Assembly (NCBI GenBank): GCA_964621585.1 | Contig: CAZULU010000003.1 | Location: 1 to 28,227 of the forward strand | Length of the DNA stretch: 28,227 nt | Reading direction: 5' to 3' | DNA from: an uncultured Pseudomonadales bacterium | Lineage (GTDB): Bacteria; Patescibacteriota; Microgenomatia; UBA1400; PJMF01 | Part shown: piece after piece, positions 3,281-24,804 of the stretch | How positions within the stretch are numbered: position 1 is the stretch's first letter | Layout: every line of letters begins with the position of its first letter | Notes under the pieces: generated by a model | What the model was told of the DNA's origin: nothing | Databases searched by the model: none | What the model saw: only the letters and a program-made list of their open reading frames with translations | Program-made: the position numbers and the translations under genes

Positions 3281-3619
3281 TTATTTTCCAGTAGATCTAG
3301 CGTCATCAATAGCCTGTTTGCGCACCGTCCGTTCGAGCTTCTTTTCTAGTTTTTTGATGCTGATCCGATTAAAGATAGTAATGGTTCCTAAGATCATAAA
3401 CGCCAAAATAACGATAGCATCAAACACTCGACCAATATGCAGCACTTCAGCCACATAGGACATCGTTTGAGGAAATATTGATAAAAATATAAAGCCAATC
3501 CAAATAGCAATCCATGCACCATACTCGAAACTGTCAAACACGTCTTTGTTTCGATGTATCCGAATAACATACATCATGAAAATGGCAAATAAAATCGTGA
3601 AAATTTGAAAAAGTATCAT
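3281..3619 (-). CDS. Small membrane protein, DUF2304-like (3 predicted TM segments plus C-terminal helix)
   Basis: Family-like pattern WIAIWIGFIFLSIFPQ...AEVLHIGRVFD...KKLEKKLERTVRKQAI. Start moved from 3634 to the ATG at 3619, which makes an ATGA overlap with the upstream GT2 stop and has GGAGG upstream. Confidence 0.8.
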   Translation of the reverse strand: MILFQIFTILFAIFMMYVIRIHRNKDVFDSFEYGAWIAIWIGFIFLSIFPQTMSYVAEVLHIGRVFDAIVILAFMILGTITIFNRISIKKLEKKLERTVRKQAIDDARSTGK

Positions 3620-5246: not shown

Positions 5247-6449
5247 TTATGAAATCCAGTATCCTTGAATAAATAGCATAATATTCACGATTAGTACTAT
5301 ACCGGATATTCCCAGGTAAGTATAGAATACCGGTTTTTTTTCGAACAATTGTGGAATGATGAAAAAGATTGGGAAGCAGACGAGCACGTATCTAGGCATG
5401 CTGGAGAATGTGCCCGTCAATGTAGGTAACAAAAACGCGGCAAAACTAAAGACTAATTCAGACACTTTTATTTTTAGTGAACGTTTGACGACTCCAACAC
5501 CAAGCAACACTAATACACCAATAGTCAAAAATAAATCTTGGACATACGAGAAGTATTTCCAATCAATCGGTCGAACTGTCAGTAAAATTTTGAGATATCG
5601 ATACATAACCTGAGGTAAAGTTACGATAGACTCTGATCGATTTGCGCCAAATTCAGACTGCACATGGAAAAAATAGAGCGGATCTTTAAAATCAATCCAT
5701 AGAAAAAGCATATAGAGAGAGAGTCCCGTCACACCTACGCTAATCCCGAGCAGCGCACGCCAACTCTTTCGGATAAAGGTAATAATAATTCGCAACACTT
5801 CGTTGATTGGCGTTGATCGCGTTATTTGGTATTGCTGGAAAAACAAATCAACAGCAAGCGCTGGTACCAAGAAAACACCAACTAAGCGAGTTGCAGAAGC
5901 AATTGCCACGCAGCACCCCGCCCAAAACCACCTCTTATTGCGAGCAAGTAAAAATGACAAGATTACCAGAAAAAGAAACAACGATTCTGTGTAGATACCT
6001 ACTAAGAAAAATGATGTGGGATACAGTAAAAAGGTAAGTACTGACTTCCACGCTATCTTTTGATTGAAACGCTGAGCCACATATTGAAAGAAAACGACAA
6101 TAAACAGTATGAAAAACAGATGAGAAATGATAAGACCAGTTGTTACATACGTGAAGCCTGTGGCAGCCTGGATCAAACGCATTAATAATGGATATACCGG
6201 GAAAAATGCCTGAGACAAACCCGCAAAATTGTATCCTTCCTGCGCAATCGTTATATAGTGGACCCCATCAAAATTACCCCAACTGTACAGCCACTGTGGC
6301 AACTGAGTCGAGTGTAAAAAGCCTTCAGCATACGGGAAAGAGGGAGCATATTCAAAAAAAAATTGAGAAGACTTACCAATAAAAAACAGCGCACATCGCC
6401 AGATAACTAACAAAATAATCAACTGTAGAAGTGTGCGTTTTGCTATCAT
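5247..6449 (-). CDS. GT-C-fold membrane glycosyltransferase, PIG-V-like mannosyltransferase family
   Basis: Polytopic hydrophobic pattern; WGNFDGVHYITIAQEGY, AFFPVYPLL, YTESLFL, ASATRLVG, SMPRYVLVCFP. Start is the ATG at 6449 or the GTG at 6455. Confidence 0.8.
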   Translation of the reverse strand: MIAKRTLLQLIILLVIWRCALFFIGKSSQFFFEYAPSFPYAEGFLHSTQLPQWLYSWGNFDGVHYITIAQEGYNFAGLSQAFFPVYPLLMRLIQAATGFTYVTTGLIISHLFFILFIVVFFQYVAQRFNQKIAWKSVLTFLLYPTSFFLVGIYTESLFLFLVILSFLLARNKRWFWAGCCVAIASATRLVGVFLVPALAVDLFFQQYQITRSTPINEVLRIIITFIRKSWRALLGISVGVTGLSLYMLFLWIDFKDPLYFFHVQSEFGANRSESIVTLPQVMYRYLKILLTVRPIDWKYFSYVQDLFLTIGVLVLLGVGVVKRSLKIKVSELVFSFAAFLLPTLTGTFSSMPRYVLVCFPIFFIIPQLFEKKPVFYTYLGISGIVLIVNIMLFIQGYWIS

Positions 6450-6459
6450 GAGCACTTCT

Positions 6460-9086: not shown

Positions 9087-9095
9087 ATTATAGCA
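9087..9095 (-). promoter_or_regulatory. Putative extended -10 promoter (TGCTATAAT)
   Basis: Perfect TGnTATAAT consensus in the 35-nt gap, ending 18 nt before the ATG at 9068. Confidence 0.55.
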
Positions 9096-9103
9096 AGTTT
9101 CAC

Positions 9104-10750
9104 CTAGTATTCCTTAACTTTCCATGAGTTACCATTCCAATACAATAGCACTTGTTCATTGAATCGATCATTTTCGTCTTTAATAAATCGATATCTACTC
9201 ACTTGTTCTCCATACCGGAAATTAATTGTATCTGAATTTTGCTTTACAACGGAATTGAAAAAATCTTGCGGAGGGATCTGCAGATACCAGGCTGTCAGAA
9301 CATAATGAAATCCTCGAGTATCAATGACGGCAACCGGCTCGCCAGGATAATCTTGCTCGATCTGTTGTAACACGTCGTCATATCCAGGCTGTAATATTGA
9401 TTGGTATTTCGTACTATCCTTGTACTGCAAAAAGTAAAACTGTAGATACGAACTGGCTTCCCAAACAAGAATCATCATGAAAAATCCCATCCATAGTATT
9501 CTCGTTATCTCTGGGTGAGAAGCTACTTTACTCAGCATGTAGCCGATAAGTTTTACGCCTTTGATACTTACTATTGAAAGGATAATGAAAAAAAGTAGTG
9601 TGCGCGTTGCATGAGGAGCGTTCACAGTGATGCTGGCCGGAAATAAGGATACTACTAACACCCAGAGTAACAGCAAGTCATTCCACTGCAGTATTGGTTG
9701 CTGCACTTTTCGATGGTGCACCAGTCCAATGACCACATGAATGAGATTGTATAAAACTCGGCCCAACAATACCCCTATCCCAAGTAATCCAAAAGCGAAA
9801 ATAGAGACATAGACATATCCCCTATCTGGTACGGCATGCCACGGATGTCCACCAGTGTTGTACAAAAGAAAAGAAGGATCAAAACTTGCAATATAATTTC
9901 TTGAGATTTTTGTAAGATAGAATACATACTGGTTACCGAAGATTGTTTGCCAGATACCGGAAAATGATGATCGGTAAGGAATATATTCTGCTATAAATGT
10001 GCTTTCTGAAAAGATGGTGATTTGACTTTTTTGCTGATTAAATGACTGAAGTGCTACAAAGCAACTCGACCAAACTCCAAACATTATGAACAATGTGATC
10101 AACCACTTTTGCCAGTGCTTTACTCCGCGCAAAAATGGTAAAGGCATTACCACTAAGGGAATCAATAAGAATGGAGCATTGTAGGTAAAGTATGATACTC
10201 CAACCAATATGACAGCTAATCCATCATATAGATATTGTTTTGGTCGTACCTTGTAGAGTAAAACCATTACGGCCATAGTCAACGCCAATGCGACCATTGC
10301 TTCAAAGGCTACGCGTGAATAAAAAATAAATACAGGGAGCAAGGCTACTACGGCTGCTGCAATTCCGGATTGTCGACGAGAAAGCAAGAATAGTGAACTC
10401 AACTTATAGGTGAGAAAAATGATAGCTGTACCAGCTGCTGCTGCCCAGAATCGAACTGCAAAATCACTATAACCGAAAACTAAAAAAGCTACAGTTGTTA
10501 ACAGAGGATATACAAAGGGTTTTTGATCTCCAAATGCTTCAAGAATGATAGGCCACCGTCTCCCCCATTCATCCGTTCCAGTCTCGCGTAGCAGATAGGC
10601 GTTATATGCAATTGAAGCTTCATCTGGGTTAAGTATAGCGGGGATCGCTCCGAGTTTATAAAAACGGCTAATAACAGCGACAACAATAACAGCTGCTATA
10701 AACCATGGAAATAATTTGATGATAGAGTCAAATAGTACTTTCAATCGCAT
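9104..10750 (-). CDS. GT-C membrane glycosyltransferase (ArnT/PMT_2-like), array member 5 in transcription order
   Basis: Polytopic; PAILNPDEASIAYNAY..TGTDEWG..FGDQKP..FGYSDFAVR; late motif APHATR; soluble C-terminal domain. Start moved from the GTG at 10762 to the ATG at 10750, 1 nt after the upstream stop. Confidence 0.85.
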   Translation of the reverse strand: MRLKVLFDSIIKLFPWFIAAVIVVAVISRFYKLGAIPAILNPDEASIAYNAYLLRETGTDEWGRRWPIILEAFGDQKPFVYPLLTTVAFLVFGYSDFAVRFWAAAAGTAIIFLTYKLSSLFLLSRRQSGIAAAVVALLPVFIFYSRVAFEAMVALALTMAVMVLLYKVRPKQYLYDGLAVILVGVSYFTYNAPFLLIPLVVMPLPFLRGVKHWQKWLITLFIMFGVWSSCFVALQSFNQQKSQITIFSESTFIAEYIPYRSSFSGIWQTIFGNQYVFYLTKISRNYIASFDPSFLLYNTGGHPWHAVPDRGYVYVSIFAFGLLGIGVLLGRVLYNLIHVVIGLVHHRKVQQPILQWNDLLLLWVLVVSLFPASITVNAPHATRTLLFFIILSIVSIKGVKLIGYMLSKVASHPEITRILWMGFFMMILVWEASSYLQFYFLQYKDSTKYQSILQPGYDDVLQQIEQDYPGEPVAVIDTRGFHYVLTAWYLQIPPQDFFNSVVKQNSDTINFRYGEQVSRYRFIKDENDRFNEQVLLYWNGNSWKVKEY

Positions 10751-10751
10751 A

Positions 10752-12554
10752 TTATTGAGCACGTTTGTTCGTCATTTCGCCGTCTGATTCAGTAGGCATT
10801 GATTCATATATCCCTATTTCAAAGCGGAGATTTCCAACACTGTCAAAAATCTCCATCCTTTTTGAAGGAACAACTTGCAGATTTCCTGGTGTTGCAATCA
10901 CCATGGTGGGTTTGGGCAAGTTTTGTAGGTTCTGCCATTGCATGGTTCGAAATTTAACCTGGTCTAAGTGTCCCAAGCCATTGTCTACGTACTCAAAAGA
11001 CTGATAATCCTCACCAGTGTAGTCACCATATATCATTAACCATAGATAAAAACGACCATCATTAACATCAGCAATAATACTCGGGTAACTGTCCTTTTCT
11101 TCATGGATAAAGCGTGCCAATTCTGAGTATCCACTCTGCCAATATTGAGCACTGCGTTGTGGATAGTGACCAAAATAGTCATGTAAAAACAAGCCAGTTT
11201 GCAATCCCACTGTGAACAGTATCATCCCAATAAATATTTTTTGATACATGGCATTCTTTTGAATAAATAGTTTGTGCAGCATCACCGCCAAACCAAAACC
11301 AATCATAAGCACGAGTGGTGTAAGCGCATTCAGGGAACGCAGTGCATGGGGAACTTCCTCTGGAACTGAGGCCGGCAACAAGGCAATTATCCACCACAGT
11401 GTAAGTACGGCCAAAACTCTCCAATGAGACCGTGCAAGGGTGAGTAAACCAAAGATCAAAACAGGCAGTAAACTGAACACAAACAAACCATGTTGGCCAG
11501 TACCGTGACGAAGATTTTGATCACCTGTCATAAATAAAAACTCAAAACGTACGTTTTCTGCATAATTTCCCAATAATTCTCGAAGAAGTAAAAAGTGTCG
11601 ATGATAAAAAACTCTAGACAGTGGTCCATTCCCCGCCCACTCACGATACATGTTGGACTGCATGGGAAGGTCAAACACATTTAAAATAGATTTTGCACTT
11701 AGCCGCATCGCTTGACTGGGCTGATAGTGAACAGATGTGTACAAAGGTGTCAAGAGTACTCCCCACAACACAAGCGAAAACACGATAACAAGCAGCTTTT
11801 TGATCATGCTTTTTCTTATTATTTGACGAAGAAAATCACTCCAGTTTTTTTGCGTCCAGAAAGGACTCAATACTTTGATACCATCAGGGAGATAGGACAG
11901 TACCACTATGGCTACGAAAATCACAGGCCACACAAAACGTACACTATAATAGCTGTACACACTGATTGCTCCGAGTAGTGCACTGAATGGATATAACCAC
12001 ATACTTCGCTGAGCCTTAAGAAGGAATAATACAGACAATGAAACAAAAAACTGTCCCAGGTGTCCTTCAAAACCATTACGAGAAAACATCACTGACCAGG
12101 GGGAAATGGTTACAATAAGTGCGGAAGATACCATCCATAATTTCTGAAGAAAGAGAGAAGCTCTTTTGCGAGTCGACCACCACCAAAGCTCCTGAGCAAG
12201 AAAGAAGAGTAAGAGAATTTGGGCAGTCCCAAAAACTGCACTGGGTAACCGGAGCGACCACTCACTCGTCCCAAACAACCAAACACTGATTGTACTGAAC
12301 ACAATATATGTAGGCAATTTAAAGTCGCCGTAAGAAAAAAACATTGGCTGAATTCCTGGGTCCCCATGCATGTCTTTGCCCGTTTCTGCAATTGACTTCG
12401 CGTCAACAAGCATAGCAATCTCATCCCAATATAATGAGACTGGTACTTCACCGAGTTTATAAAAACGTATCAATGTTCCAACAAGAATGAGACTGAAAAT
12501 CGTACATTGTAACCAATATTTTCTGATAGTCGTTGTGTGGAGAAGCTTTTTCAT
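10752..12554 (-). CDS. GT-C membrane glycosyltransferase (ArnT/PMT_2-like), array member 4
   Basis: PVSLYWDEIAM..TGKDMHG..YGDFKLP..FGTSEWSLRLPSA; GDQNLRHG; VPHALR. ATGA overlap with the upstream paralog. Confidence 0.85.
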   Translation of the reverse strand: MKKLLHTTTIRKYWLQCTIFSLILVGTLIRFYKLGEVPVSLYWDEIAMLVDAKSIAETGKDMHGDPGIQPMFFSYGDFKLPTYIVFSTISVWLFGTSEWSLRLPSAVFGTAQILLLFFLAQELWWWSTRKRASLFLQKLWMVSSALIVTISPWSVMFSRNGFEGHLGQFFVSLSVLFLLKAQRSMWLYPFSALLGAISVYSYYSVRFVWPVIFVAIVVLSYLPDGIKVLSPFWTQKNWSDFLRQIIRKSMIKKLLVIVFSLVLWGVLLTPLYTSVHYQPSQAMRLSAKSILNVFDLPMQSNMYREWAGNGPLSRVFYHRHFLLLRELLGNYAENVRFEFLFMTGDQNLRHGTGQHGLFVFSLLPVLIFGLLTLARSHWRVLAVLTLWWIIALLPASVPEEVPHALRSLNALTPLVLMIGFGLAVMLHKLFIQKNAMYQKIFIGMILFTVGLQTGLFLHDYFGHYPQRSAQYWQSGYSELARFIHEEKDSYPSIIADVNDGRFYLWLMIYGDYTGEDYQSFEYVDNGLGHLDQVKFRTMQWQNLQNLPKPTMVIATPGNLQVVPSKRMEIFDSVGNLRFEIGIYESMPTESDGEMTNKRAQ

Positions 12555-14245
12555 CGTTGGTATACCCGCCAGATAATTTGACCATGCAAATCAATAACAG
12601 TATCTAATAATTTGCCACCAATCTCTTGGTATTTTTCATCTGAGCTGGCAATCAGTCCGCGAGTCCCACTATGTATTGCATCAGAAAAAGTAATATTCTC
12701 GAATTCTAGGAACTCACTTTGATCCTTATGGACTGTTTGTGATGCATTCTGAACAAGTTTAGGATTAGTTTTGGAATAAAACCAGTAATACATAGCTGGA
12801 CGACCCTCTTCTCGAGAGATAGTTACAGCCTGATTAGGTTGCATATGTTGCTGAACACTGGAAACCATTTGTTGATAGCCGAACTGCCAAACTTGAGCTG
12901 CTTCTCGAGGATAAATTCTATAGTAATAATGGCTAAACATTGTAAATTGTAGAATATAGAGCCCCGTCACTCCAATGATTATGAAGCACTGCATACGCTT
13001 GTTTTTAAAGAATTCTACTACGCCTACTACTCCCGTGGTAATTGTGAACATCCACACAGCCAATGAGGGTAAGATTCGTAACGCATGTGGTGATCCAAAC
13101 GTTATCGATGCTGGAAGTATCGCAACAACTAACCAGAACCCTAAAAACAAGTATTCTTTCATTCTGTATAGTTTATAGAACCAAATAACATACACACCAA
13201 TCACCAGAAAAATAAATTCAATGTGATAGAGCTGTCCCATATATTGTATGGAGTGTCGAAGATTTGCATCACCGGCAAGAAATAAAAAGGACGGATGAAA
13301 GTGAGAAATAAAGTTTCCCAGAATTTCTTGGCCAAACAATATATATCGATGGTGAACAAGCCGTGCTAGTTGTGTATTTCCATCCTCAGCTATGAGTTCA
13401 TTACTTTTTTCAATGACAGAAATATCGGAAAATATACTAGTTTCTGCAAACCGCTGAGACGTCTGCTTTTTCCCAAGCGAGAGTAGCAACGGAGTCAGCA
13501 ATACTAGAGAAATACCTAATACTCCTAACAGCTTTGGCAATGTAGCAGCAAAATGCGACTTGAGGTGTCCTAGCCATGGCAAGCTAATAGCAATCCCCAA
13601 CATAGGGGCAATAATTCTCGTGGCATGATACGTATACATCGACAGAATAAAAAGAACTGCTGAACCCATCAATAAAAGTACGCTTCTAGTACTGTTACCC
13701 TTCCAACTTTTCAAGCCCAACCAAACTCCCCAAGTAATAAAACATGTGGCTAGGTTCACTTCCCATCCTGCTCTCGAAAACTGCACTGCCCAAGGCGAAA
13801 TAGTTGTTACTAGCATTGCAACAATCATCGCCAAATTTGACCGTACAGCTTGTTTTTTCGCTGGTGTTGTTTTTTGAAGCGAAAACAGATGTTGGGTGAG
13901 TAGACCAATCGCCAGAACAGACAGCGTGCCTGCTATCGCTGAGGGCAGTCGTACTGCCAACGTAGATAAACCAAAAAGTTTGATAAACGGAATAATTGCA
14001 TAAAAATACAACGTGGGTTTATAGTCTCCAAATGACTCAAAAGCTACGATCGGAAAAGCATTTCCATGATGATCCTTGCCGGTCTGTAAAATAGAATACG
14101 CATCATACCCCAGTGCAACTTCTTCCCAATACGGTGATGGTGGTACCTGATCGAGTTGATAGGTACGAATAATAAACGCACATAATACAATTAGGCTCAC
14201 GCTGAACCAAATAATCCAATGGTGATTTTTTATCCAATTGTGCAC
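12551..14245 (-). CDS. GT-C membrane glycosyltransferase (ArnT/PMT_2-like), array member 3
   Basis: PPSPYWEEVALGYDAY..TGKDHHG..FGDYKP..FGLSTLAVRLPSA; GDANLRHS; SPHALR. GTG start 2 nt after the upstream stop. Confidence 0.85.
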   Translation of the reverse strand: MHNWIKNHHWIIWFSVSLIVLCAFIIRTYQLDQVPPSPYWEEVALGYDAYSILQTGKDHHGNAFPIVAFESFGDYKPTLYFYAIIPFIKLFGLSTLAVRLPSAIAGTLSVLAIGLLTQHLFSLQKTTPAKKQAVRSNLAMIVAMLVTTISPWAVQFSRAGWEVNLATCFITWGVWLGLKSWKGNSTRSVLLLMGSAVLFILSMYTYHATRIIAPMLGIAISLPWLGHLKSHFAATLPKLLGVLGISLVLLTPLLLSLGKKQTSQRFAETSIFSDISVIEKSNELIAEDGNTQLARLVHHRYILFGQEILGNFISHFHPSFLFLAGDANLRHSIQYMGQLYHIEFIFLVIGVYVIWFYKLYRMKEYLFLGFWLVVAILPASITFGSPHALRILPSLAVWMFTITTGVVGVVEFFKNKRMQCFIIIGVTGLYILQFTMFSHYYYRIYPREAAQVWQFGYQQMVSSVQQHMQPNQAVTISREEGRPAMYYWFYSKTNPKLVQNASQTVHKDQSEFLEFENITFSDAIHSGTRGLIASSDEKYQEIGGKLLDTVIDLHGQIIWRVYQR

Positions 14246-14247
14246 TG

Positions 14248-16008
14248 TTACAGTGTATCTGGTGTAAATTTAATTAGGTACCAGATATCCTTAGAGAATT
14301 CTGAAGAGAATTCTTGTATAAATTTATATCGTTGATCTCCATCCATAAAATCTTTCAATTCTTTTTTTTCAAGCACATAGTATATTATTGAACTCTGCTT
14401 CTTATCTTCATCCCATTCTATCTCACCAAATGTAAGATTTCTCAATTGCTTTACATGAACAAAACCTTCGTCTGTGGGAGGATAGAAAGTAATGTGCTGA
14501 TCAATAGGTGAGAAAGTACGGGGATAGTAGAACAAGAAATAAATATATGGAGAGCTCGCTTCTCCTTGAAAACGTACTATTTGCTTCTCATCAAAAGATT
14601 GCATTACAGTATGTGTAATCTCTTTCATATGCCACGGCCAGCGATCAACATCCATTTTTGGAAAAATATAAAAGTAGGTAATCACAAATTGAAAGACCGA
14701 ATACACACAAACAAAAGACAAAGCAACAAATGAAAGTCTCTTGAGTAGATTTCCTTGAAATGTGTTCCGAAAGAGCGTCGCTGCTCCAAAGGCTGAAACA
14801 ATAACTAGCGGTACAAGTGCGGGAATAAATCGAATTGAGTGATCAGGAGTAATAGTAATAATTGGGGCTAGCGAAGCTATCACTAACCAAGCCAACAAGA
14901 ATTTTTGCCAGTATACCCTACTTTTTACCCACGTATATAACCCGACAGTAACAAATAGTACTTCAATGAGATAAAAATTGGCAATGTAACTAATATTATG
15001 TAAATTGCTGGAGTTACCGACAAAGAGAAATGTTGGATTCCATAATGTTAAAATGTTTCGAGTTACTGAAGTAATGTATATCGTGGCTCTATTTGAGTAG
15101 AGTTTGGCAAGAAATGGATGCAGCTCCCCGACTATCTGTCGTTTGGTGAATAATTCCTCTCGGTAGCGATGTTCAGCAAATGGAGAAACTCCTCCAAACT
15201 TGGTGGCATTTGCGCTGCCACTGCGTGCTATCAACACCATCATCATACAGGCTATCACTATTACCCCCGACATAAAAAAGACTGTTTTGTGATGTTTGAA
15301 CAGGTCAATTAAATGATCACGGTATAAATACAGAAGGTAAAAACCCATTACTGGGGTAAAGACTTGAAAAGAGTGATAGCCAAACAATGTAATACCAAAA
15401 CACAAAGCTGCAAGAGGAAACAACCATACTAAGTATTTTCTCATCCATCGTTCAGCTGACAAATTTCTCTGCAGTGCCATCAAAAAGAATGTGAGACCTA
15501 AAAGAAAAAATGCGAGAGTGACATTAGCTTCATACGCAACTCTAGATAGATGTACTGCCCAGGGATTAACGGCTAAGAAACCTCCGACTACCACTGGCAT
15601 CCAGCGAATTAACGGAGTTTGTTTCTCCTTCTCCAATAACAATCTCGTCACAATCACAGACAGTACCACTATCGCGATCCCCGCTAGAGCAGATGGTAAT
15701 CGCACACTCCATTCATTGAGCCCAAATGCTGCAATTGAGGGAATTGTTAGGTACACATATAAAGGAAGTTTCCAGTCTCCAAATGACTGAATGTTGATTG
15801 GAAAGGCTATCCCATGCTCTTCTTTTCCAGTTGTAAGTATTGAATAGGCAGTGTATCCCAAAGAAGCTTCATCTCGATTCAGCGCTATAGGAATTTCCCC
15901 TAGCTTCCAAAACCTTAAAATGACGGCTATACAAAGAACAAAAAATACTATGACAATCTGAAATCGAGAAAATGGAGTGTGCTGAAGTCGTAGTAGAAAA
16001 TTTCTCAT
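14248..16008 (-). CDS. GT-C membrane glycosyltransferase (ArnT/PMT_2-like), array member 2
   Basis: PIALNRDEASLGYTAY..TGKEEHG..FGDWKLP..FGLNEWSVRLPSA; PDHSIR. ATG 2 nt after the upstream stop. Confidence 0.85.
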   Translation of the reverse strand: MRNFLLRLQHTPFSRFQIVIVFFVLCIAVILRFWKLGEIPIALNRDEASLGYTAYSILTTGKEEHGIAFPINIQSFGDWKLPLYVYLTIPSIAAFGLNEWSVRLPSALAGIAIVVLSVIVTRLLLEKEKQTPLIRWMPVVVGGFLAVNPWAVHLSRVAYEANVTLAFFLLGLTFFLMALQRNLSAERWMRKYLVWLFPLAALCFGITLFGYHSFQVFTPVMGFYLLYLYRDHLIDLFKHHKTVFFMSGVIVIACMMMVLIARSGSANATKFGGVSPFAEHRYREELFTKRQIVGELHPFLAKLYSNRATIYITSVTRNILTLWNPTFLFVGNSSNLHNISYIANFYLIEVLFVTVGLYTWVKSRVYWQKFLLAWLVIASLAPIITITPDHSIRFIPALVPLVIVSAFGAATLFRNTFQGNLLKRLSFVALSFVCVYSVFQFVITYFYIFPKMDVDRWPWHMKEITHTVMQSFDEKQIVRFQGEASSPYIYFLFYYPRTFSPIDQHITFYPPTDEGFVHVKQLRNLTFGEIEWDEDKKQSSIIYYVLEKKELKDFMDGDQRYKFIQEFSSEFSKDIWYLIKFTPDTL

Positions 16009-16010
16009 AG

Positions 16011-17702
16011 TTAGGGTTGCAGTTGCTTCGGAGTAATAATCACAAACTTGACTTCACCATTGGGAGCAATAACTACATCATCAGCTTTTGTTGGCGAGAT
16101 TTGCTGAGGAGTTGCAATAATCAACGTGTTATGACGGAGCAAGTCTGCTTCAGAAATTCTATCTGTAAATTCATATTTAATAAGTGATCCACCTTGGTAC
16201 CAAATTGGATTTGTTTTTCGAGCAAATAAAGCATAAATATACGGTTGACCATACGAAGAAGTAAACAGAATTTTGTCAGCTGTATCTTCGTATTGTTTGG
16301 CATATTCCATAGCTTGCTCATAACCATAGTAGAAATCTGTTGAAGAATCTTGATAAAACTGTGAAAAATAGCGATGGCGGTAACTTAAGAATAATACGCT
16401 ATGCAGTAAGAGGGTCATACCAACGATACTCCTGAAAATATTTAGAACATCATCATTGCTAACGTGAAAACCAAGTATCTTAATGTGGGGGAGCCTTTTT
16501 TCTGAGATAAATGAAAGCAGTCTCTCAACAGCGACTATACTTGCCAACAGAAAACCAGGATATGCAATGAGCGCTCTAATAGAGTGCGGAACTTCTACTC
16601 CAATTGCAGCGGGAACTATTCCCAAAATTATCCACCCCACAATGAAAACTAGACCCTGATTTTTGAAACTTACCGGCACTCTATTTAGATATTTTTGCAA
16701 GATAGTCGCAAGAAAAATCAGCAACAACAGCGCTTCAGTAATCAATAAGACCCCCCAGTGACCGTCACCATGTCTTAGCGAAGTGGTTTGTCCCCAAATT
16801 AAAAACTGTGGTGATAGATGACGCCAGAAGTTCCCAAATGCAATTCCTAACTGAGAGTACCAATAAGAATCTGAATGAAATATTGAGGTCTGTGTAAAAC
16901 GGTCGCCACCACTCCCCCACAGTGTATCTATTATCATTGGACGCAAAAGGATAAGGCCAACCACTGTAGCAGTCATCACTGGAAGTCGGTGCTTCCAAAA
17001 AGTCTTAAAATGAAGAACAAACACGAAGAGTAAAAACAAGGGCACAAATACTTTGGCACTATGATAAGCGTAAAGAGAACATACAAAATTCACACTCGAG
17101 AAAAAAAGTATTGAGAAATGTAGAAATGGCTTCTTGAACTTCTGCTGTAAGAAAAGAATTAAAAATAAAGTTCCCCAAATAATAAAAAATAATGAGATCC
17201 CTGCTTCAAATCCAGCTCGCGAAAAATGAAAATGCCACGGAGATGTTGTTAATAGAAAACCACTCATAAGCGACAAAACTTGCACTCTTCTTTGAGCAAG
17301 CTCTGGAGCATAAAATTCCAGAAATGACTTTGTTAACAAAATCACTCCCAGCACACTTCCTACTCCTGCTAAAGCAAAGGGTAATCGCACTGCCCACAAA
17401 TTTAGTCCAAACACAAAAGTAAAAATACCACTCATGTAAATTGCTAACGGTGCTTTGAAATCACCAAAGGATTTGAATGAAACTGGCAATCGAACCAGCC
17501 ACTCGTCTCGCCGTGTCGTGACAATAGCATGTCCATTGTATCCGATTGCAGCTTCATCCCAAGTCATACCGGCCGGAACAACACTCAACCTATCTAGGCG
17601 TAGAAATAGCGCAATTGCCATCAATATTGCAGTAACTATGACAAACCAATGGCGTACAATGAAGGGAGGAAATACAGAGGAGGGTGATATTTCTTTTGAC
17701 AC
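16011..17702 (-). CDS. GT-C membrane glycosyltransferase (ArnT/PMT_2-like), array member 1
   Basis: PAGMTWDEAAIGYNG..TRRDEW..FGDFKAP..FGLNLWAVRLP; TSLRHG; VPHSIR. GTG start, so the exact start is less certain. Confidence 0.85.
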   Translation of the reverse strand: MSKEISPSSVFPPFIVRHWFVIVTAILMAIALFLRLDRLSVVPAGMTWDEAAIGYNGHAIVTTRRDEWLVRLPVSFKSFGDFKAPLAIYMSGIFTFVFGLNLWAVRLPFALAGVGSVLGVILLTKSFLEFYAPELAQRRVQVLSLMSGFLLTTSPWHFHFSRAGFEAGISLFFIIWGTLFLILFLQQKFKKPFLHFSILFFSSVNFVCSLYAYHSAKVFVPLFLLFVFVLHFKTFWKHRLPVMTATVVGLILLRPMIIDTLWGSGGDRFTQTSIFHSDSYWYSQLGIAFGNFWRHLSPQFLIWGQTTSLRHGDGHWGVLLITEALLLLIFLATILQKYLNRVPVSFKNQGLVFIVGWIILGIVPAAIGVEVPHSIRALIAYPGFLLASIVAVERLLSFISEKRLPHIKILGFHVSNDDVLNIFRSIVGMTLLLHSVLFLSYRHRYFSQFYQDSSTDFYYGYEQAMEYAKQYEDTADKILFTSSYGQPYIYALFARKTNPIWYQGGSLIKYEFTDRISEADLLRHNTLIIATPQQISPTKADDVVIAPNGEVKFVIITPKQLQP

Positions 17703-17794: not shown

Positions 17795-19873
17795 TTAGTC
17801 AAGCAGTTGAGTAATACACAACCACATACCTTTCCGAAAAGTCCCGTTCATTTTCCTGTTGGTTATAGTCAGGTGATATGGTAGCCACATCAAGAATTGT
17901 AGCTTTTGAACGAGTGTGCCATTTTTTAGAGTAAACACAATAGCGTTTTTGATTGACATGACTTGCATGCGTTGTTCACCAAACGCAGTCTTATTTGTTG
18001 TTTCATGATTGTGATCAACCAAGGCGTCTACATCAAACCAAACACTCCATCCCATCTTCTTAGCACGATACGAAAGATCTGTATCTTCCCAGTAGGCAGG
18101 CTTGAACTTGGGGTCAAAACCTTTTAATTCCAACCACTTTCGCTTATCAAACATTGCACTCCCACCACTTGCCCATGCCGTCTCTCCAGTACTATAACGT
18201 TTTGCTCGACTATGATGAAATAATCCTCGCTCAAACCACAAACGATTCTTACCCCCAGATATCTGTTTTCCTTGACTGTCTTTTTCTATTTCATGACACC
18301 CAACTGCAAACACGTTTCGCGGTTGTTTACGATTTTCGGACTCTGTAAAGTAGGGCACCAAAACATCTAAGATTTCTTTGTGTGGTTTGACATCAGAATT
18401 CAGAAGCAAAATTAGATCATGACTTGCCTGTTTGACACCACGATTAGAAGATATTGCGAACCGTTGGTTGTCCACGTTTTTGAGAACAGTGATATCAATT
18501 TTTCTATTCTCGTCACTAAAACTTCCCTTAAACAAATCAAAATAGATGACTGCTCGATCTTCTACTCTGTCTAAAGAAAAGTATTGCACCAACCATTCGA
18601 TAGAATTATCTGTGCTCGCATCATCCACAATCACTATCTCATCATTATTTCGCAGACAGCGTAAAACTGCAGGCAAATGTTTCTCGAGTAATCTCTGTCC
18701 ATTATAATTTGGAATAACTACTGATACGTGGGGACTAATTTCATCCTTTTCAATTGGTTCTATGTCTACCATTGTGTCGAGTTTACGATAAAAATTTTCT
18801 GGAGAAAAAGTACTCGCTCTCTCGCGAGCATGCTGAGCAATATCTGCCATATCAACTTCTTCTTTTATACATGCCAACGTTTTTTCTATTAAAGCGTCTC
18901 TCTCATTCCAAAGATAACCAGAAACCCCATGTTCAATAATCTCTTTTTGGCCTCCCTTGTTGATGACAATCGGAACACACCCACTTGCCATAGCCTCAAT
19001 GGTAGTTATTCCAAAATGCTCCATTTTTTCCGGATGCAAGTATTCGTCTACCTCATATCCTGTTGCATGCCAATATATTTTTGCTCGACTAAATAAATTC
19101 TTTAAAGCCTCTTGTGAGGCATTATGAATAATTTGAATTGGAAACCCTTGAGCCATCTCTTGTATTCGGTCTGCATATTCTTGATCTTCTACTGGACCTA
19201 CCAGAATCAATCGCCATCCGGCCATTTCTGATGGATAGTCCTTACACATTTTTTTGAAAGCTTTTACTAATACATCTTGTCGCTTAGTGTGCAAACCTGT
19301 AAAAAATCTTCCAACATTCAGGATAATTTTTTCCTTCCGTTTACCAGGCAAGAACTGATTAGTATCAACAAATGGTTGGTGGACTTTAGAAACTTTAGTT
19401 TCCCATACTCTTTCAATCACTTGTTTAGTAAAAATCGAATTGGTATTTTTGATTTGCCAATTGAGCAATTTTAGCCGATCAAAGAGTGAAAGCTGATGCT
19501 TGAATGGAACCTGAATGTGTAAAATGTTTCTTTTCGCCAGGGAAAAGAAAAAGCTGCCATCAGTGACGTAGTACATTACATCAAATTGGCTGGTCCATTT
19601 CACCTTGTCGAGAAATTTTTGAGAAGTAAACAAAGGAGTTGCCACAAACTCTACAAACTGGAGATCCAAATCAAGAAAACGCTCATAAGCTTCTCGGATA
19701 AGATGTTGGTCATCAACACTCAACTCAGTCTCAGAGGGAATTCCCACCACTACACGATGCCCTTTAGAAAGGTACTCTGCAACGGAGAAAAAATATCGTT
19801 CTCCTCCTCCAAAGTGCTTGGGAACATACGGAGAAATTAAACAGACTGATAATATTTTGCTCGTTGCTGACAT
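17795..19873 (-). CDS. Bifunctional glycosyltransferase: N-terminal GT4 (GT-B) fused to C-terminal GT2 (GT-A, WbbL/RfbF-like)
   Basis: GT4 part: HFGGGERY, ILNVGRF, HTKRQDVL, EHFGITTIEAMASGCVP. GT2 part from about 18740: VSVVIPNYNG, VDDASTD, LLNSDV, SGGSAM, GFDPKFKPAYWEDTDLSYRA. No stop between the domains. Start moved from 19963 to the ATG at 19873. Confidence 0.9.
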   Translation of the reverse strand: MSATSKILSVCLISPYVPKHFGGGERYFFSVAEYLSKGHRVVVGIPSETELSVDDQHLIREAYERFLDLDLQFVEFVATPLFTSQKFLDKVKWTSQFDVMYYVTDGSFFFSLAKRNILHIQVPFKHQLSLFDRLKLLNWQIKNTNSIFTKQVIERVWETKVSKVHQPFVDTNQFLPGKRKEKIILNVGRFFTGLHTKRQDVLVKAFKKMCKDYPSEMAGWRLILVGPVEDQEYADRIQEMAQGFPIQIIHNASQEALKNLFSRAKIYWHATGYEVDEYLHPEKMEHFGITTIEAMASGCVPIVINKGGQKEIIEHGVSGYLWNERDALIEKTLACIKEEVDMADIAQHARERASTFSPENFYRKLDTMVDIEPIEKDEISPHVSVVIPNYNGQRLLEKHLPAVLRCLRNNDEIVIVDDASTDNSIEWLVQYFSLDRVEDRAVIYFDLFKGSFSDENRKIDITVLKNVDNQRFAISSNRGVKQASHDLILLLNSDVKPHKEILDVLVPYFTESENRKQPRNVFAVGCHEIEKDSQGKQISGGKNRLWFERGLFHHSRAKRYSTGETAWASGGSAMFDKRKWLELKGFDPKFKPAYWEDTDLSYRAKKMGWSVWFDVDALVDHNHETTNKTAFGEQRMQVMSIKNAIVFTLKNGTLVQKLQFLMWLPYHLTITNRKMNGTFRKGMWLCITQLLD

Positions 19874-19901
19874 AATGAAAATGAAACCAGTTGATACATG
19901 A

Positions 19902-20726
19902 CTACTTCTTGTGTTTATCCCATTGCTCCAAAACTGTTTCGTCAATTTTTTGATAGGTTTCATTTAAAGATGGTTTACGCTGAAGTTCCCACAGCCGTTC
20001 ATACACAATAAACTTATTCATTGCCTGAGTCATAGCCTCAATCCATCCTTCTATGCCATCCTTACGTCCTTTTTTAAAAAATGCACGTCGAATAAACTCC
20101 ATGACACTTTTTCTCACTAATGTTTTTACTGTGACCTGCGGATGCCCTCCGTCAAAGAGTAGTTGTGCTTCAATGCCAGTCCACTCAATCGTTTTTTTTA
20201 AACCATCTACCATATTACGGTGAGTAAGATGGACAAGTGGTTCTTTTAATGCAACTACTGGGCCTTCAACATGTGGTGTTTCATGGACTTCGCCTGTCCA
20301 TTTATTGAAAGCAGATTTTCTAAAGACTCTTTCCACCCAATCATTGTGCCACCCACCGTGCTCCATCCACTTACCATAATGAATATTATTCCGTTTCAGT
20401 TTACCTGCAACACTATCTGGTTGTTTCATGAGGTTTTGTATCTCTTTTGCTAGTTGGGGGGTTACTCGCTCGTCTGCATCTATATATACAATCCAATCAC
20501 TTGTTACATACCGAAGGGCTACATTTCTACGTTCTGCGAATGAACCAGTCTTCACTTTGATTACTTGTGCACCCGCACGCTCAGCTAAACCAATTGTCAT
20601 GTCTTTAGAACCAGAATCAACCACAATTATCTCATCACACCATTTTAGTGTTTCTAGACAGTTAGCAATCATCAATTCTTCGTTGTAAGTGAGGACGACA
20701 GCAGAGATTGTTGAAGATGTTCCCAT
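19902..20726 (-). CDS. GT2, WaaE/KdtX/LgtF-like family
   Basis: ISAVVLTYNEE, DEIIVVDSGSKDMT, YIDADERVTPQL, VHETP, LVHL, GRKDGIEG. Start moved from 20774 to the ATG at 20726. Confidence 0.9.
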   Translation of the reverse strand: MGTSSTISAVVLTYNEELMIANCLETLKWCDEIIVVDSGSKDMTIGLAERAGAQVIKVKTGSFAERRNVALRYVTSDWIVYIDADERVTPQLAKEIQNLMKQPDSVAGKLKRNNIHYGKWMEHGGWHNDWVERVFRKSAFNKWTGEVHETPHVEGPVVALKEPLVHLTHRNMVDGLKKTIEWTGIEAQLLFDGGHPQVTVKTLVRKSVMEFIRRAFFKKGRKDGIEGWIEAMTQAMNKFIVYERLWELQRKPSLNETYQKIDETVLEQWDKHKK

Positions 20727-20805: not shown

Positions 20806-21720
20806 TTAGACATGAAATAACTCTCTTAAGAGCAAAATTTTTGTTTTCCAGGAAGCGTACTTCATTGCAAATCGTATTCTATTACGACGCAAATACTTAT
20901 TATGAATAGATGAACCTGAACCACCAGATGACCCAGCGTTTTTATGCCAAATTACTGCAGTAGGACAAAATACTAAAGAGTATCCTGCGCGCTTGATTCT
21001 TTCACTTAAATCAACATCTTCCCAATACAAGAAGTACGCTTGGTCAAACACGCCAACTTGTTCAACAACTTTTGCAGGTATGAACATGCAACATCCTGTG
21101 GCAAAATCCATTTTTCTAGTTGAAATATATGGTACAGTCAAAGGTTTAGGCTTGAGAGATTTCTCGAGTTTAGATCGTTTCTTGTCCAGTACTTTCCAAT
21201 TAAACTGTCCTCGGTCAACCTGGTCAACTCCTCGGTGAAAAGCAAACATATTTTTCCAGTCAATCGATCCACCTGCAAACCAAATTACCTTTCCTAAATC
21301 CTCCTTCGAATAACTCTCTTTGTGATACTCATACCCTTTTGCAAAGTAGATCATAGGATTTACAATTCCAACATTCTTTTCGTTTTCAGCACACTGCATC
21401 AACTCTTGAAGGAAACTTTTTTCTACTAAAGTATCGTTGTTCAATAGTAAAAAGAAATCAGGACGAAAGCTTTCTTTAGCATAGAAAATGCCTTGATTAT
21501 TACCCCCTGTAAAACCTGTATTCGTTTTTGAATACACAATCCTCAATGAAAAATTCTTATAGGTGTCTTCTCTCAATAGAATCTGCTCTTTGGAACCATT
21601 ATCAACTACTACAACTTGAACATCCACTTCAGTAAAGTCTGCCTGATTCAGAGAATCTAAACAGTCTTTGGTGTGCTGATGCGAATTATAATCAACAAGA
21701 ATAATCGATACTTTTTTCAT
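20806..21720 (-). CDS. GT2, WbbL/RfbF-like (rhamnosyl/hexosyltransferase-like)
   Basis: VSIILVDYNS, VDNGS, NTGFTGGNN, LLLNNDT, DFATGCCM, FDQAYFLYWEDVDLSER, IWHK. Start moved from 21747 to the ATG at 21720 (ATGA overlap). Confidence 0.9.
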   Translation of the reverse strand: MKKVSIILVDYNSHQHTKDCLDSLNQADFTEVDVQVVVVDNGSKEQILLREDTYKNFSLRIVYSKTNTGFTGGNNQGIFYAKESFRPDFFLLLNNDTLVEKSFLQELMQCAENEKNVGIVNPMIYFAKGYEYHKESYSKEDLGKVIWFAGGSIDWKNMFAFHRGVDQVDRGQFNWKVLDKKRSKLEKSLKPKPLTVPYISTRKMDFATGCCMFIPAKVVEQVGVFDQAYFLYWEDVDLSERIKRAGYSLVFCPTAVIWHKNAGSSGGSGSSIHNKYLRRNRIRFAMKYASWKTKILLLRELFHV

Positions 21721-22403
21721 AGGTGTGAAACCGGCCAAAATCGCCATTTAAGAATAACTTTTACTGCTGAAATACCATCTTTCCAAGTTACTTTTTTTCC
21801 TTGACTGAAATCTCTGCCCACATAACTGATGGGTACTTCATATATTCTAATGCCGCGACGCAATATTTTACAGGTAATTTCAGGTTCAATATCAAATGTA
21901 TTTGACTCTATATCTAGCTGTTTAAATAATGCTGTGGGTATCAATTTGTAACATGTTTCCATATCTGACAGCGTGGTGTCATATAAAATATTCACAACAA
22001 AATTCAAGAATTTATTTCCTACTAAGTGCCAGAAGAACAAATTTGAATGTGGACCCAAAAAGCGTGATCCGTACACCACTTCCACATTTCTTTTTTCTAC
22101 AGCTTCAGTCAGGTACTGGATATCGTCAGGGTGGTACTCCAAGTCCGCGTCTTGGATCAAAACATAATCTCCTTGTACATATTGCAACCCTTCACGAATA
22201 GCACTTCCTTTCCCTTCATTCTTTTTGTGAAAAATTTTCACCTTTTTATTCTTAATATTTTGAAGAATATTTTTAGTAGCATCAGTTGATCCATCATTTA
22301 CAATGATAATCTCATGGACTTTGGCAACTTTCAGTAGCGCTGTAATAATTGTTTTTACAGTAGTTTCTTCGTTATAGACTGGAACAATCACAGACAGGCG
22401 CAT
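21717..22403 (-). CDS. GT2, polyprenyl-phosphate sugar synthase-like (DPM1-like)
   Basis: LSVIVPVYNEE, VNDGSTD, NEGKGSAIREG, IQDADLEYHP, VVYGSR, SDMETCYK, FDIEPEIT, YEVPISYVGR, GKKVTWKDG. Confidence 0.9.
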   Translation of the reverse strand: MRLSVIVPVYNEETTVKTIITALLKVAKVHEIIIVNDGSTDATKNILQNIKNKKVKIFHKKNEGKGSAIREGLQYVQGDYVLIQDADLEYHPDDIQYLTEAVEKRNVEVVYGSRFLGPHSNLFFWHLVGNKFLNFVVNILYDTTLSDMETCYKLIPTALFKQLDIESNTFDIEPEITCKILRRGIRIYEVPISYVGRDFSQGKKVTWKDGISAVKVILKWRFWPVSHL

Positions 22404-23299: not shown

Positions 23300-24802
23300 C
23301 TATACCGCTTTATGTGAACGCAAGCTCTGTATTTCTAAAAGTAGCTTGTGCTTACCTAATAATAAAGTCATGATCGCATATACCACAACACTGCTCATCA
23401 TCCCGATCAGCAACCATTCTAAACCTCTTGTCCAGAAATTCATCAATAGTATACCAAATCCACCCATAACACCGGCTGAAACCCCGTGTCTCCACACTTG
23501 TTCCAGTACACTAATATCAACGATCTTCTTCACCATAAATACTGGAATTATTGAGCTAAAAGCAATCAAGAAGGATCCAATTGCTACTCCATGATATCCA
23601 AAAAATCTCAAGCATAATGGCGTAACAACCCAAGTTAGAACTGTCCACATTACCATTAATTTCAAGGTTTGATTAACTTTTCCTACAGCATTGAGTGTGT
23701 TTGTCAGCGGTGAAGAAATAGCACTCCACCCAATACTCAGACTAAAAAGAACAAAACTTAAAATTGTTGGTTCCCATTTATTGTATTTTTCAACCACTTG
23801 AGTTAACGGATAAATAAAAACGCTCATTCCAACAATGATTGGGAAGATACCAAGTGTAATGAAATATAGCGATTTTTCTATTGCCTTGCGCAATGCTTCC
23901 TTATTCCCTTGGAGGCGAGAAAAGGTAGGAAAGGTGATGGCCATGACGTTTTGTACAGTTAGATTATAGGGGTACATAGACCACTGCTTCGCCCAACTCA
24001 TATATCCATAGTGTTGTGGAGTCATCATCGCTCCAATGACTATGAAAAACAAATTATCTTTTACGCGAGCAATTAAATCATTTAATTGAAACTTTAGACC
24101 AAAATTCATCAATTTTCGTAACGAATTGACATCAATACTTATTCCAATAGCCCACGGCTGAATCATAAACATAAGCACTGTCCCTACTACTGATCGTGCA
24201 AAAATCGCGTAGGCAAAGGAAATTGCCCCAAAGCCTTTGAGTGCAAGTACTATTAAAATCACATTAAACGCTATTTGTTCAAAAATCTGTGGAACCACTA
24301 ATTTAGGAAAATCTAGTTTTCTCTCAATTTGAATAGCAGAAATTGTTTTGAATGAGGCAAGTGGAAAAGCAATCCCTGAGGCCAACAATATCCAGACACC
24401 AGTCATCCCAAACTGTTGTTGAATGATTCCACTCCATACGATCACCAGGACCACTGCAAAAATTAACCACGATAGCAACTGTTGTACCGTAAATGCAGTT
24501 CGGTAATCCTTTAATGTTGGGTGTTCTTTCTTTTGAATTAGGGATGCTGCTAATCCTATATCTGAAAAAAAAGTTAACAATCCTATAAATTGAAGTACAT
24601 AGCCATACACCCCAAAATCTTCAGGTGTAAAGTACGCACTTAAAACAAGTTGCGCACCAAGTCCAATTGCTTGAAGAAAAATTGTACGACCAAAATAAGA
24701 GGCTGCACCCGATACAGACTTTTTCTTTATATCTTGTAATTCCTGATCACCAAGAACTTCTTCCAGTTCATCAGTAGTATCTGTGGGAGTTTGATGAATC
24801 AT
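23300..24802 (-). CDS. wzx: Wzx-type oligosaccharide flippase (MOP superfamily, WzxC-like)
   Basis: Polytopic; PEDFGVYG, FSDIGLAASLIQK, IERKLDF, KLMNFG, GYMSWA, FPTFSRLQ, KWEP. Start is the ATG at 24802; the track used the TTG at 24808. Confidence 0.8.
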   Translation of the reverse strand: MIHQTPTDTTDELEEVLGDQELQDIKKKSVSGAASYFGRTIFLQAIGLGAQLVLSAYFTPEDFGVYGYVLQFIGLLTFFSDIGLAASLIQKKEHPTLKDYRTAFTVQQLLSWLIFAVVLVIVWSGIIQQQFGMTGVWILLASGIAFPLASFKTISAIQIERKLDFPKLVVPQIFEQIAFNVILIVLALKGFGAISFAYAIFARSVVGTVLMFMIQPWAIGISIDVNSLRKLMNFGLKFQLNDLIARVKDNLFFIVIGAMMTPQHYGYMSWAKQWSMYPYNLTVQNVMAITFPTFSRLQGNKEALRKAIEKSLYFITLGIFPIIVGMSVFIYPLTQVVEKYNKWEPTILSFVLFSLSIGWSAISSPLTNTLNAVGKVNQTLKLMVMWTVLTWVVTPLCLRFFGYHGVAIGSFLIAFSSIIPVFMVKKIVDISVLEQVWRHGVSAGVMGGFGILLMNFWTRGLEWLLIGMMSSVVVYAIMTLLLGKHKLLLEIQSLRSHKAV

Positions 24803-24804
24803 AC

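Follow-up and report, generated by a model that had tools for sequence, protein, structure and literature searches.

Five anciently diverged GT-C glycosyltransferase paralogs in a Microgenomatia glycan locus as candidate steps of one outer-face glycan pathway

The window analysed here, namely the entire 28,227-bp contig C3 of a 0.9-Mb metagenome-assembled genome (MAG; 84% complete) of a member of the Microgenomatia (Patescibacteria) from activated sludge, contains five consecutive genes for paralogous membrane glycosyltransferases (GTs) of the GT-C class, which are named A to E in the order of transcription. The five paralogs are, on balance, probably non-redundant and catalytically competent enzymes that carry out different steps of a single extracytoplasmic glycan pathway at the outer membrane face. 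The grounds for this proposal are the fold, the conservation of polar residues, the positional orthology of the genes, the envelope-glycan locus in which they lie and their co-inheritance, from which the mechanism itself is inferred. The enzyme chemistry is of a known kind; what the analysis adds is a family-wide hierarchy of gene loss and the fusion of A with a GT2 domain (GT2::A) in several relatives. The five genes are:

16011..17702, minus strand: paralog A, 563 aa, an ArnT/PMT-like GT-C with WDE, FGDFK, TSLRHG and PHSIR
14248..16008, minus strand: paralog B, 586 aa, a GT-C with RDE and DHSIR, in which E replaces the family D58
12551..14245, minus strand: paralog C, 564 aa, a GT-C with EE, not DE, in the first outer loop
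10752..12554, minus strand: paralog D, 600 aa, a GT-C co-distributed with E
9104..10762, minus strand: paralog E, 552 aa, a GT-C, the most divergent of the five, with a GHPWHA loop

The preliminary description of this DNA had reported five contiguous genes of approximately 550-600 aa, in agreement with the 552-600 aa open reading frames found on the minus strand, separated by junctions of +2, +2, -4 and +1 nt. The first three values were reproduced for the A/B, B/C and C/D junctions, and that between D and E is -11 nt from the GTG start at 10762 or +1 nt from the ATG at 10750, the latter being evidently the start that had been used. The proteins align over their full length with 30 invariant columns, and the identity between pairs ranges from 24 to 32%. 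The strongest nucleotide match between any two of the genes covers 110 nt at 70%, so that the duplications are to be considered old, as had been proposed from the lack of long nucleotide identity. Taken together the five genes occupy 8.6 kb, approximately 1% of the genome. Since all the 25 real genes of the contig are co-directional, on the minus strand, the array is embedded in a longer cluster and is not a unit of its own.

Standard sequence searches connect the family to no solved structure, though its fold is clear. With the NCBIfam models nothing meaningful was obtained for A-E, the ArnT models being without a match, and with Pfam no PMT or PMT_2 match was found for A-D, the sole PMT_2 match among the five being that of E, at a sub-threshold score of 24 bits versus a cut-off of 26.1. 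Neither ArnT/GT83 membership at the sequence level nor Pfam PMT/GT39 membership can thus be assigned, all five being below the gathering score; certain orthologs elsewhere do pass PF13231 or PF02366, which places the family at the edge of the reach of PMT_2. Searches of the PDB sequences with phmmer and with profiles of 5 and 70 sequences returned no solved GT-C, only chance matches (ISG15, TetR), and in the profile search no ArnT chain appeared even at E <=10. AlphaFold (AF2) models were obtained for C (70 sequences; pLDDT 95.9, pTM 0.94) and for E (49 sequences; pLDDT 94.6, pTM 0.93). The top Foldseek match of the C model was ArnT (E 1e-7), and VIA-align yielded Z values of 26.3 for ArnT (5f15), approximately 25 for STT3, 24 for Pmt4 and 14-18 for ALG9, Emb and AftA, with unrelated chains at <=4.5. 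The alignment of C with ArnT spans model residues 10-564, with 425 residues aligned and the C-terminal domain included. For the E model the corresponding Z values were 21.7 (Pmt4), 20.8 (STT3) and 20.5 (ArnT). The strong structural matches of both models were all GT-C enzymes (ArnT, STT3/AglB/PglB, PMT, ALG9/12, Emb/Aft and PimE; Z 9-26), with unrelated folds at Z <=7, and among the Swiss-Prot proteins of AFDB the matches of C were dominated by ArnT, plus two uncharacterised Aquifex proteins. The sequence identity with ArnT in the structural alignments is 11-13%. According to these models C and E, which stand at both ends of the paralog spectrum, share the GT-C fold of ArnT, STT3 and PMT, bearing out the initial assignment to the ArnT/PMT class.

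From the order of the helices in the C model and the position of a K/R-rich loop (123-131), the N-terminus is placed inside and the 29-94 loop, which is made of two amphipathic helices and a beta-hairpin, outside. The family architecture consists of about 13 membrane helices, with the (D/E)E pair, and with it the conserved acidic residue expected of a GT-C in its first extracytoplasmic loop, in the first outer loop, and of a small C-terminal outer domain. No MIR domain was matched by Pfam in A-E, and the region between transmembrane helices TM7 and TM8 is modelled as short helices with an 18-residue loop. In PMC6801728 the GT-C enzymes are defined by their use of polyprenyl-phosphate-linked sugar donors, and by analogy, taking into account the locus context, such donors may be assumed for the paralogs.

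Conservation was evaluated on 308 family members from 88 loci, which had been ascertained through C, and is given in the numbering of C. E42, the second residue of the (D/E)E pair, which lies 12-13 residues past TM1, is conserved in 100% of them, and R27, D58, D74, K76, R99, R158, E162, Y206 and R390 in 95-99%. All five proteins of the window keep these family-wide polar residues, with a conservative D58E replacement in B. In loop 1, A, B, D and E carry the DE motif of the PMTs and C carries EE, E41 and E42 being invariant in 41 C orthologs. Judging from the sequences, none of the five paralogs looks degenerate, contrary to one outcome that had been envisaged at the outset. Among the motifs initially listed, T-x2-(D/E)-x-(H/W), FG-x5-(V/L)R and (P/D)H(A/S)xR are present in the five-protein alignment, and the five mid-loop strings (TSLRHG, SSNLHN, ANLRHS, QNLRHG and GHPWHA) were each found verbatim. 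Two other motifs need correction: in P-x4-(D/E)E the acidic pair stands, with its second E invariant, but the spacing from the Pro is x5, and in (F/Y)GD-x-K-x-P the portion up to the Lys holds, but K-x-P is found in 3/5 proteins only, C and E having K-P.

A strict search for specificity positions, namely columns at least 75% conserved within each of A, C, D and E and with at least three different residues between the groups, was passed by only 3 columns (77, 210 and 389), and the ratio of within- to between-orthogroup identity was calculated region by region in its place. The ratio is highest in the C-terminal outer domain (2.25), followed by the 324-341 loop (2.0), which contains the variable TSLRHG, ANLRHS and GHPWHA strings, and by the outer helices that precede this loop (1.8), and is lowest (1.4-1.6) in the first loop and the membrane core. 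The paralogs have the catalytic and donor side in common, and the outer parts, which are orthogroup-specific, are presumably acceptor-facing. Divergence of the outer parts together with their conservation inside each orthogroup matches the prediction of sub-functionalisation by acceptor or linkage, so that the early suggestion of sub-functionalised copies gains support from the extracytoplasmic loop and the C-terminal domain.

The question of positional orthology versus independent expansion, also raised in the preliminary description, was answered in favour of the former by two trees. In that of 79 members from the window and the arrays of 16 relatives, each paralog of the window falls in its own supported clade (rows for A, 13; C, 14; D, 13, with a support of 100; E, 10; B, 3), and these clades group same-position genes and span several families of the order. 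With 149 members from all the 31 unbiased relatives, the support values were 93 for A, 99 for B, 95 for C and 100 for D, with a clear core clade and a weak wider clade for E; the B clade has four members (G000, which is the genome of the window, G004, G005 and G025). A recent lineage-specific expansion is rejected by both trees. The one-to-one orthologs of each copy are 35-50% identical across families of the order, and the conserved gene order, also across families, is GT2e-GT2d-GT4/GT2-A-(B)-C-D-E-GT2c-GT4-PTPS_related-PIG-V-like. The A-C-D-E order recurs across the 88 loci, in which C is present by construction; the complete ABCDE order is found only in the window and one relative, B-type genes elsewhere being kilobases upstream of the array or absent. 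Rearrangements occur: D and E are exchanged (C-E-D) in genus g11 and in some others, and in g11 A is approximately 10 kb away, adjoining GT2c-GT4 (examples, G322:C5:140088-155031 and G010:C1:464047-481546); within the same genus G010 is without E and D, and G288 without C, E and D, which provides a useful series of natural losses. On the sequence evidence available, A-C-D-E is an old syntenic block and B an accessory orthogroup.

Other family members are found in the genome of the window. Contig ends carry two incomplete E-like GT-C sequences (C72:3295-4179 and C36:14-664; L145 and L144, respectively); they correspond to N- and C-terminal halves, are mutual nearest relatives and probably represent one further paralog split by assembly. 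A further member is at C36:7118-8605.

The pattern of gene loss was determined in all the 113 genomes of the same family (f1), namely 112 that are at least 90% complete and the window's own, with orthogroup-specific profiles for A, C, D and E, the cut-offs of which were calibrated on tree-classified proteins. Scoring was confined to this family, as beyond it the profile scores are continuous and any cut-off would be arbitrary. A, C, D and E are all present in 63/113 genomes (including the unpublished genome G394), A only in 22, none of the four in 10, A and C in 5, and other combinations in 13. The A ortholog, found in 100/113 genomes, is the most widely retained. D is present in 72, and E accompanies it in 71 of those; D and E are both absent from 37, with 5 discordant genomes. 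According to the orthogroup profiles there is one C, one D and one E in each genome that possesses them. C occurs without D or E in G007, G010 and G333. At least five genera (g2, g9, g11, g205 and g208) contain more than one loss state and some whole genera are A-only, which implies that the losses are repeated events. In five D/E-loss genomes that were examined closely the residual family matches are weak, distant relatives at <=102 bits, as opposed to >=265 for real D and E, and in all five of these genomes, three of which have also lost C, the GT2c and GT4 flank adjoins the remaining GT-C. The pattern suggests a retention hierarchy in which A is kept more than C, and C more than D and E together, a ranking that follows the order of the genes and agrees with dependent steps on a single product. 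The idea that the five genes behave as one unit is to be abandoned, with A being far more widely kept than C-D-E, and B being found between A and C in few genomes.

The GT2::A fusion provides a second line of evidence. The A orthologs of G007 (L097:3018-5522), G008 (L098:1226-3706), G016 (L100:1070-3514) and G011 (L104:128-2638) are approximately 830 aa long and begin with a GT2 domain, which is followed by the GT-C. Residues 413-696 of the GT4-GT2 protein encoded directly upstream of A in the window share 46% identity with the GT2 that opens the 826-aa A ortholog of G008. The same GT2 domain is therefore joined to GT4 in the window and G004, standalone in most relatives and joined to A elsewhere, so that a Rosetta-stone argument places GT4, GT2 and A in one pathway. 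On this argument a glycan pathway is more likely than a protein glycosyltransferase that works on its own.

The whole 28-kb contig is devoted to one glycan locus, with seven standalone GT2 genes, one GT4, one GT4-GT2 fusion, two epimerase/dehydratase genes, two methyltransferases, a Wzx-like flippase and three GT-C-type proteins of families other than that of A-E. The genes relevant to the proposed pathway are:

17795..19963, minus strand: GT4-GT2 fusion gene, directly upstream of A (Pfam); separate GT4 and GT2 in most relatives
8211-9068, minus strand: GT2c, conserved downstream flank of the array by synteny
7146-8201, minus strand: GT4, conserved downstream flank of the array by synteny
3616-4308, minus strand: GT2b, candidate polyprenyl-phosphate-sugar synthase (NCBIfam AglJ 7.8e-30, PpgS 6.7e-28; 5mlz full length 2.3e-11)
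3281-3634, minus strand: small DUF2304 membrane protein (Pfam 1.1e-18), candidate partner of GT2b
21717..22403, minus strand: GT2f, second candidate polyprenyl-phosphate-sugar synthase (AglJ 1.4e-36, PpgS 1.6e-17; 5ekp GtrB and 5mlz DPMS approximately 6e-13)
23300..24808, minus strand: Wzx-like flippase (Polysacc_synt_3; Pfam 6.6e-49)
24805-26556, minus strand: PTPS_related, GT-C-like (Pfam), unmatched by the five-paralog profile at 1e-5
26572-28173, minus strand: PMT/PMT_2, GT-C-like (Pfam), unmatched by the five-paralog profile at 1e-5
5247..6455, minus strand: PIG-V/GT87-like, GT-C-type (Pfam Mannosyl_trans2 1.3e-8), syntenic in relatives

The contig carries eight GT-C-like genes in total. 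The GT2b and DUF2304 genes overlap by 19 nt, in the arrangement of GacI/GacJ and PpgS/Rv3632. GacI and PpgS are activated by their DUF2304 partners, GacJ and Rv3632, and outer-face GT-C enzymes use the products of GacI and PpgS (10.1101/180810). By sequence likeness, the set of parts of the GacIJKL/GtrABC type, namely a GT2 synthase with DUF2304, a flippase and GT-C enzymes, is found in this one locus. Elsewhere in the genome are a Bac_transf phosphoglycosyl transferase, one gene of the MraY/WecA family, a GtrA-domain protein, two LCP ligases and UppS, with which all the parts predicted for a wall-linked glycopolymer elaborated on the outer face are present in the genome.

With these components, the cytoplasmic GT2 and GT4 enzymes would assemble a polyprenyl-linked glycan, which the Wzx-like protein would flip to the outer face. 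The GacI/PpgS-like GT2s, one with its DUF2304 partner, would provide the polyprenyl-phosphate-monosaccharide donors, and each GT-C paralog would add a different sugar or linkage to the one glycan at the outer face of the membrane. A, coupled to the GT4/GT2 upstream of it, would catalyse a core step, C, D and E would form a co-dependent elaboration module, and B would contribute an accessory step. The finished polymer would probably be handed to the wall by the LCP ligases or may stay lipid-anchored. A more specific version can be put forward tentatively, and must be regarded as rather doubtful at present. It is that of a colinear Microgenomatia assembly line, in which A, physically or genetically coupled to GT2/GT4, lays the first outer-face residue on the flipped glycan, C and then D and E extend it roughly in gene order with B as an add-on, and the product is a major wall or membrane glycopolymer, the functional counterpart of arabinogalactan or lipoarabinomannan.

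Several considerations weigh against the proposal of one glycan pathway. Donor, acceptor and order of action of the paralogs are what we infer. The GT2 fused to A does not belong to the DPMS/GtrB subtype, and the fusion is silent on whether the domain takes part in the synthesis of donor or of acceptor. E is structurally closest to the protein O-mannosyltransferases. With C, D and E being adjacent, single deletions would remove them jointly whatever their function, and related genomes are not independent, so that the co-loss is weaker evidence than the counts imply. The cut-off for A is tight, true members scoring 356 bits and others 342. The inheritance is not nested in 13 genomes, almost all of which are MAGs of 50-130 contigs or belong to genus g19; these exceptions may reflect the fragmentation of the MAGs or, in g19, a divergent A below the cut-off (in G018, A was identified by tree). 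As for expression, transcription may be regarded as likely: contigs of 150-300 nt at least 95% identical to the window were found on all five genes in two sludge metatranscriptome runs, and certain of them cross the A/B and C/D junctions; they are assembled contigs at a depth of 2-6, with no silent control stretch and with possible DNA carry-over.

The proposed pathway, a stepwise elaboration of one envelope glycan, resembles that of the mycobacterial Emb/Aft enzymes or an expanded GacIJKL system. Emb/Aft-type enzymes have each their own acceptor and linkage and share few polyprenyl-phosphate-sugar donors at the outer membrane face. Like the paralogs, the mycobacterial and corynebacterial GT-C sets (EmbC-EmbA-EmbB, AftA-D, PimE and Mpt) include tandem, anciently diverged GT-Cs in a wall-glycan locus, and a GT2 and DUF2304 pair of the PpgS/Rv3632 type is common to both (10.1101/180810). 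Unlike the paralogs, the Emb proteins are of approximately 1100 aa with carbohydrate-binding C-terminal domains, match the models at Z of only 14-17 and belong to an unrelated phylum. With the GacI/GacJ/GacK/GacL system of Streptococcus pyogenes, and with GtrA/GtrB/GtrC and CsbB/GtcA/YfhO, the locus shares a GT2 that makes a sugar-P-undecaprenol, a DUF2304 helper, a Wzx or GtrA flippase and a GT-C transferring to a wall polysaccharide. In these three-component systems, however, one GT-C adds one side-chain sugar, whereas at least five GT-Cs of the same family and three of other families are found here in one locus, which implies a multi-step outer-face assembly. Such a process has a parallel in the ALG3/9/12/6/8/10 series, in which successive paralogous GT-Cs extend one flipped lipid-linked glycan with dolichol-phosphate sugars. 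The structures of ALG9 and ALG12 match the models at Z 17-19, but the ALG enzymes are eukaryotic and ER-lumenal, their genes are dispersed, and ArnT, STT3 and PMT match the models better.

It is also conceivable, if rather unlikely, that each paralog is a PMT- or TMEM260-like protein O- or N-glycosyltransferase acting on a different class of surface proteins (for example adhesins, pilins or S-layer proteins). Between TM1 and TM2 they have the (D/E)E pair, in the loop where the PMTs carry the invariant catalytic DE motif for inverting transfer (PMC12705809), and the membrane domain matches those of PMTs (GT39; Pmt1/2/4, 6P25 and 9I5L) at Z 21-24, with Pmt4 and Pmt1/2 as the best matches of E (Z 21.7). 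The weak, sub-threshold PMT_2 match of E and the presence of PMT_2 (PF13231) or PMT (PF02366) in some homologs point in the same direction, and orthogroup-specific outer domains would suit different protein acceptors too. The paralogs, however, lack the MIR domain that PMTs carry between TM7 and TM8, stay below the gathering cut-offs of PMT and PMT_2 and, in the case of C, have EE instead of DE. Furthermore, their genes are surrounded by those of cytoplasmic GT2 and GT4 enzymes and of a Wzx flippase, as is typical for polymer assembly and not for protein secretion, the A of several genomes has a cytoplasmic GT2 as its fusion partner, and C, D and E are largely kept or lost jointly, whereas separate targets would predict independence. 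Thus, between action in sequence on one glycan and action on one surface protein each, the two roles that had been left side by side in the preliminary description, the former is favoured by the phyletic co-inheritance and the GT2::A fusion, which argue for it without proving it. The almost perfect co-distribution of D and E (71 genomes with both, 37 with neither) could also be explained if the paralogs were obligate hetero-oligomers like Pmt1-Pmt2 or EmbA-EmbB, with C-D-E as one complex and the array encoding the subunits of one or two enzymes. The tight junctions (-4 and +1/-11 nt) suggest coupled translation, and relatives are known to form dimers, as stated in the titles of the matched PDB entries. 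Such an arrangement is nonetheless improbable, in that all five proteins keep the catalytic-loop residues, so that none looks purely structural, and C is found without D or E in three genomes.

The likeness of C to ArnT, the best overall match with its C-terminal domain included (Z 26.3) and the dominant one in the AFDB Swiss-Prot set, raises the question of whether the substrate, as for ArnT, is the head group of a membrane lipid or glycolipid and not a polymer. ArnT is the undecaprenyl-phosphate-L-Ara4N:lipid A transferase. The paralogs share with it (CAZy GT83; 5EZM/5F15) the GT-C fold over the full length with the small C-terminal outer domain (Z 26.3 for C and 20.5 for E), a size of about 550 aa, outer loops with conserved acidic, Lys and Arg positions and, by analogy, the polyprenyl-phosphate-monosaccharide donor. 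They differ from it in sequence, which no phmmer or profile search connects to ArnT, in the organisation of the genes, five tandem paralogs as opposed to the single arnT of the arn operon, and in a host without LpxC. The latter was absent from G000 (84% complete) and from the single-contig, 99-100% complete genomes G010 and G020, with positive results in control genomes. Lipid A is therefore not the acceptor and the function of ArnT itself, lipid A modification, is excluded; with no NCBIfam ArnT match either, the paralogs were rejected as ArnT orthologs. Decoration of another head group is a poor fit, and hardly to be expected, as five to eight GT-C genes and about ten cytoplasmic GTs far exceed what it would need. 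Finally, the copies might be redundant or fast-diversifying, kept for surface variation, for example to escape recognition by phage or host. A strain variant from sludge differs at 51 positions clustered at 12111-12222 in D, and the copy content varies among genomes. Against this stand the one-to-one orthologs with 35-50% identity and conserved order across families, the lack of recent duplicates and of nucleotide identity between copies, and the presence of exactly one C, D and E per possessing genome, so that this explanation is largely refuted by the trees and seems very improbable.

As to the distribution of the family, more than 1,000 homologs were found, nearly all the named ones being from MAGs of Patescibacteria, Pacebacteria or Woesebacteria and labelled 'ArnT-like' or 'GT39', and the named contigs with a C ortholog are from Pacebacteria, Woesebacteria, Beckwithbacteria or Microgenomates. 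When 200 high-quality Patescibacteria genomes were sampled evenly, 9/12 genomes of the same class gave strong matches versus 2/~188 others, by which the paralog family appears to be restricted to the Microgenomatia. Many public MAG records with the locus are titled 'uncultured Pseudomonadales bacterium', and others Methylococcaceae or Limisphaerales; these labels look wrong. The DNA of the window is present in activated-sludge and bioreactor metagenomes. In the activated-sludge DNA run X1, which yielded the variant mentioned above, most of the 51 differences fall in a patch of about 110 nt (12111-12222) within the N-terminal variable insert of D, and the contig is near-identical outside it; strain-level recombination or a hypervariable loop may account for this.

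The promoters that had been thought to bracket the array could not be confirmed. Promoter-like sites are at chance level (33 versus 28.1 +/- 5.5 in shuffled sequences), no minus-strand site is present in the 92-nt spacer upstream of A, and a terminator scan gave counts at the level of the shuffles. In the 35-nt spacer between E and GT2c, the following element was read from the sequence and, with the scan overall at chance, is a possible internal promoter candidate:

9087..9095, minus strand: TGCTATAAT, extended -10-like element (TGnTATAAT-type)

The chemistry of the Patescibacteria envelope is essentially unknown, and a literature search, which was not exhaustive, found no description of GT-C arrays in this group. 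These bacteria are ultra-small, with genomes of approximately 1 Mb, and are presumed to live on the surface of other cells, so that their own surface is central to their biology. In this setting the nested inheritance (A; A and C; A, C, D and E) leads to a concrete hypothesis on the order of action of the paralogs and names natural 'knock-out' lineages. If the colinear assembly line tentatively put forward above is true, the lineages that are without C, D and E would carry a shortened polymer at their surface, perhaps in connection with a shift in host or lifestyle.

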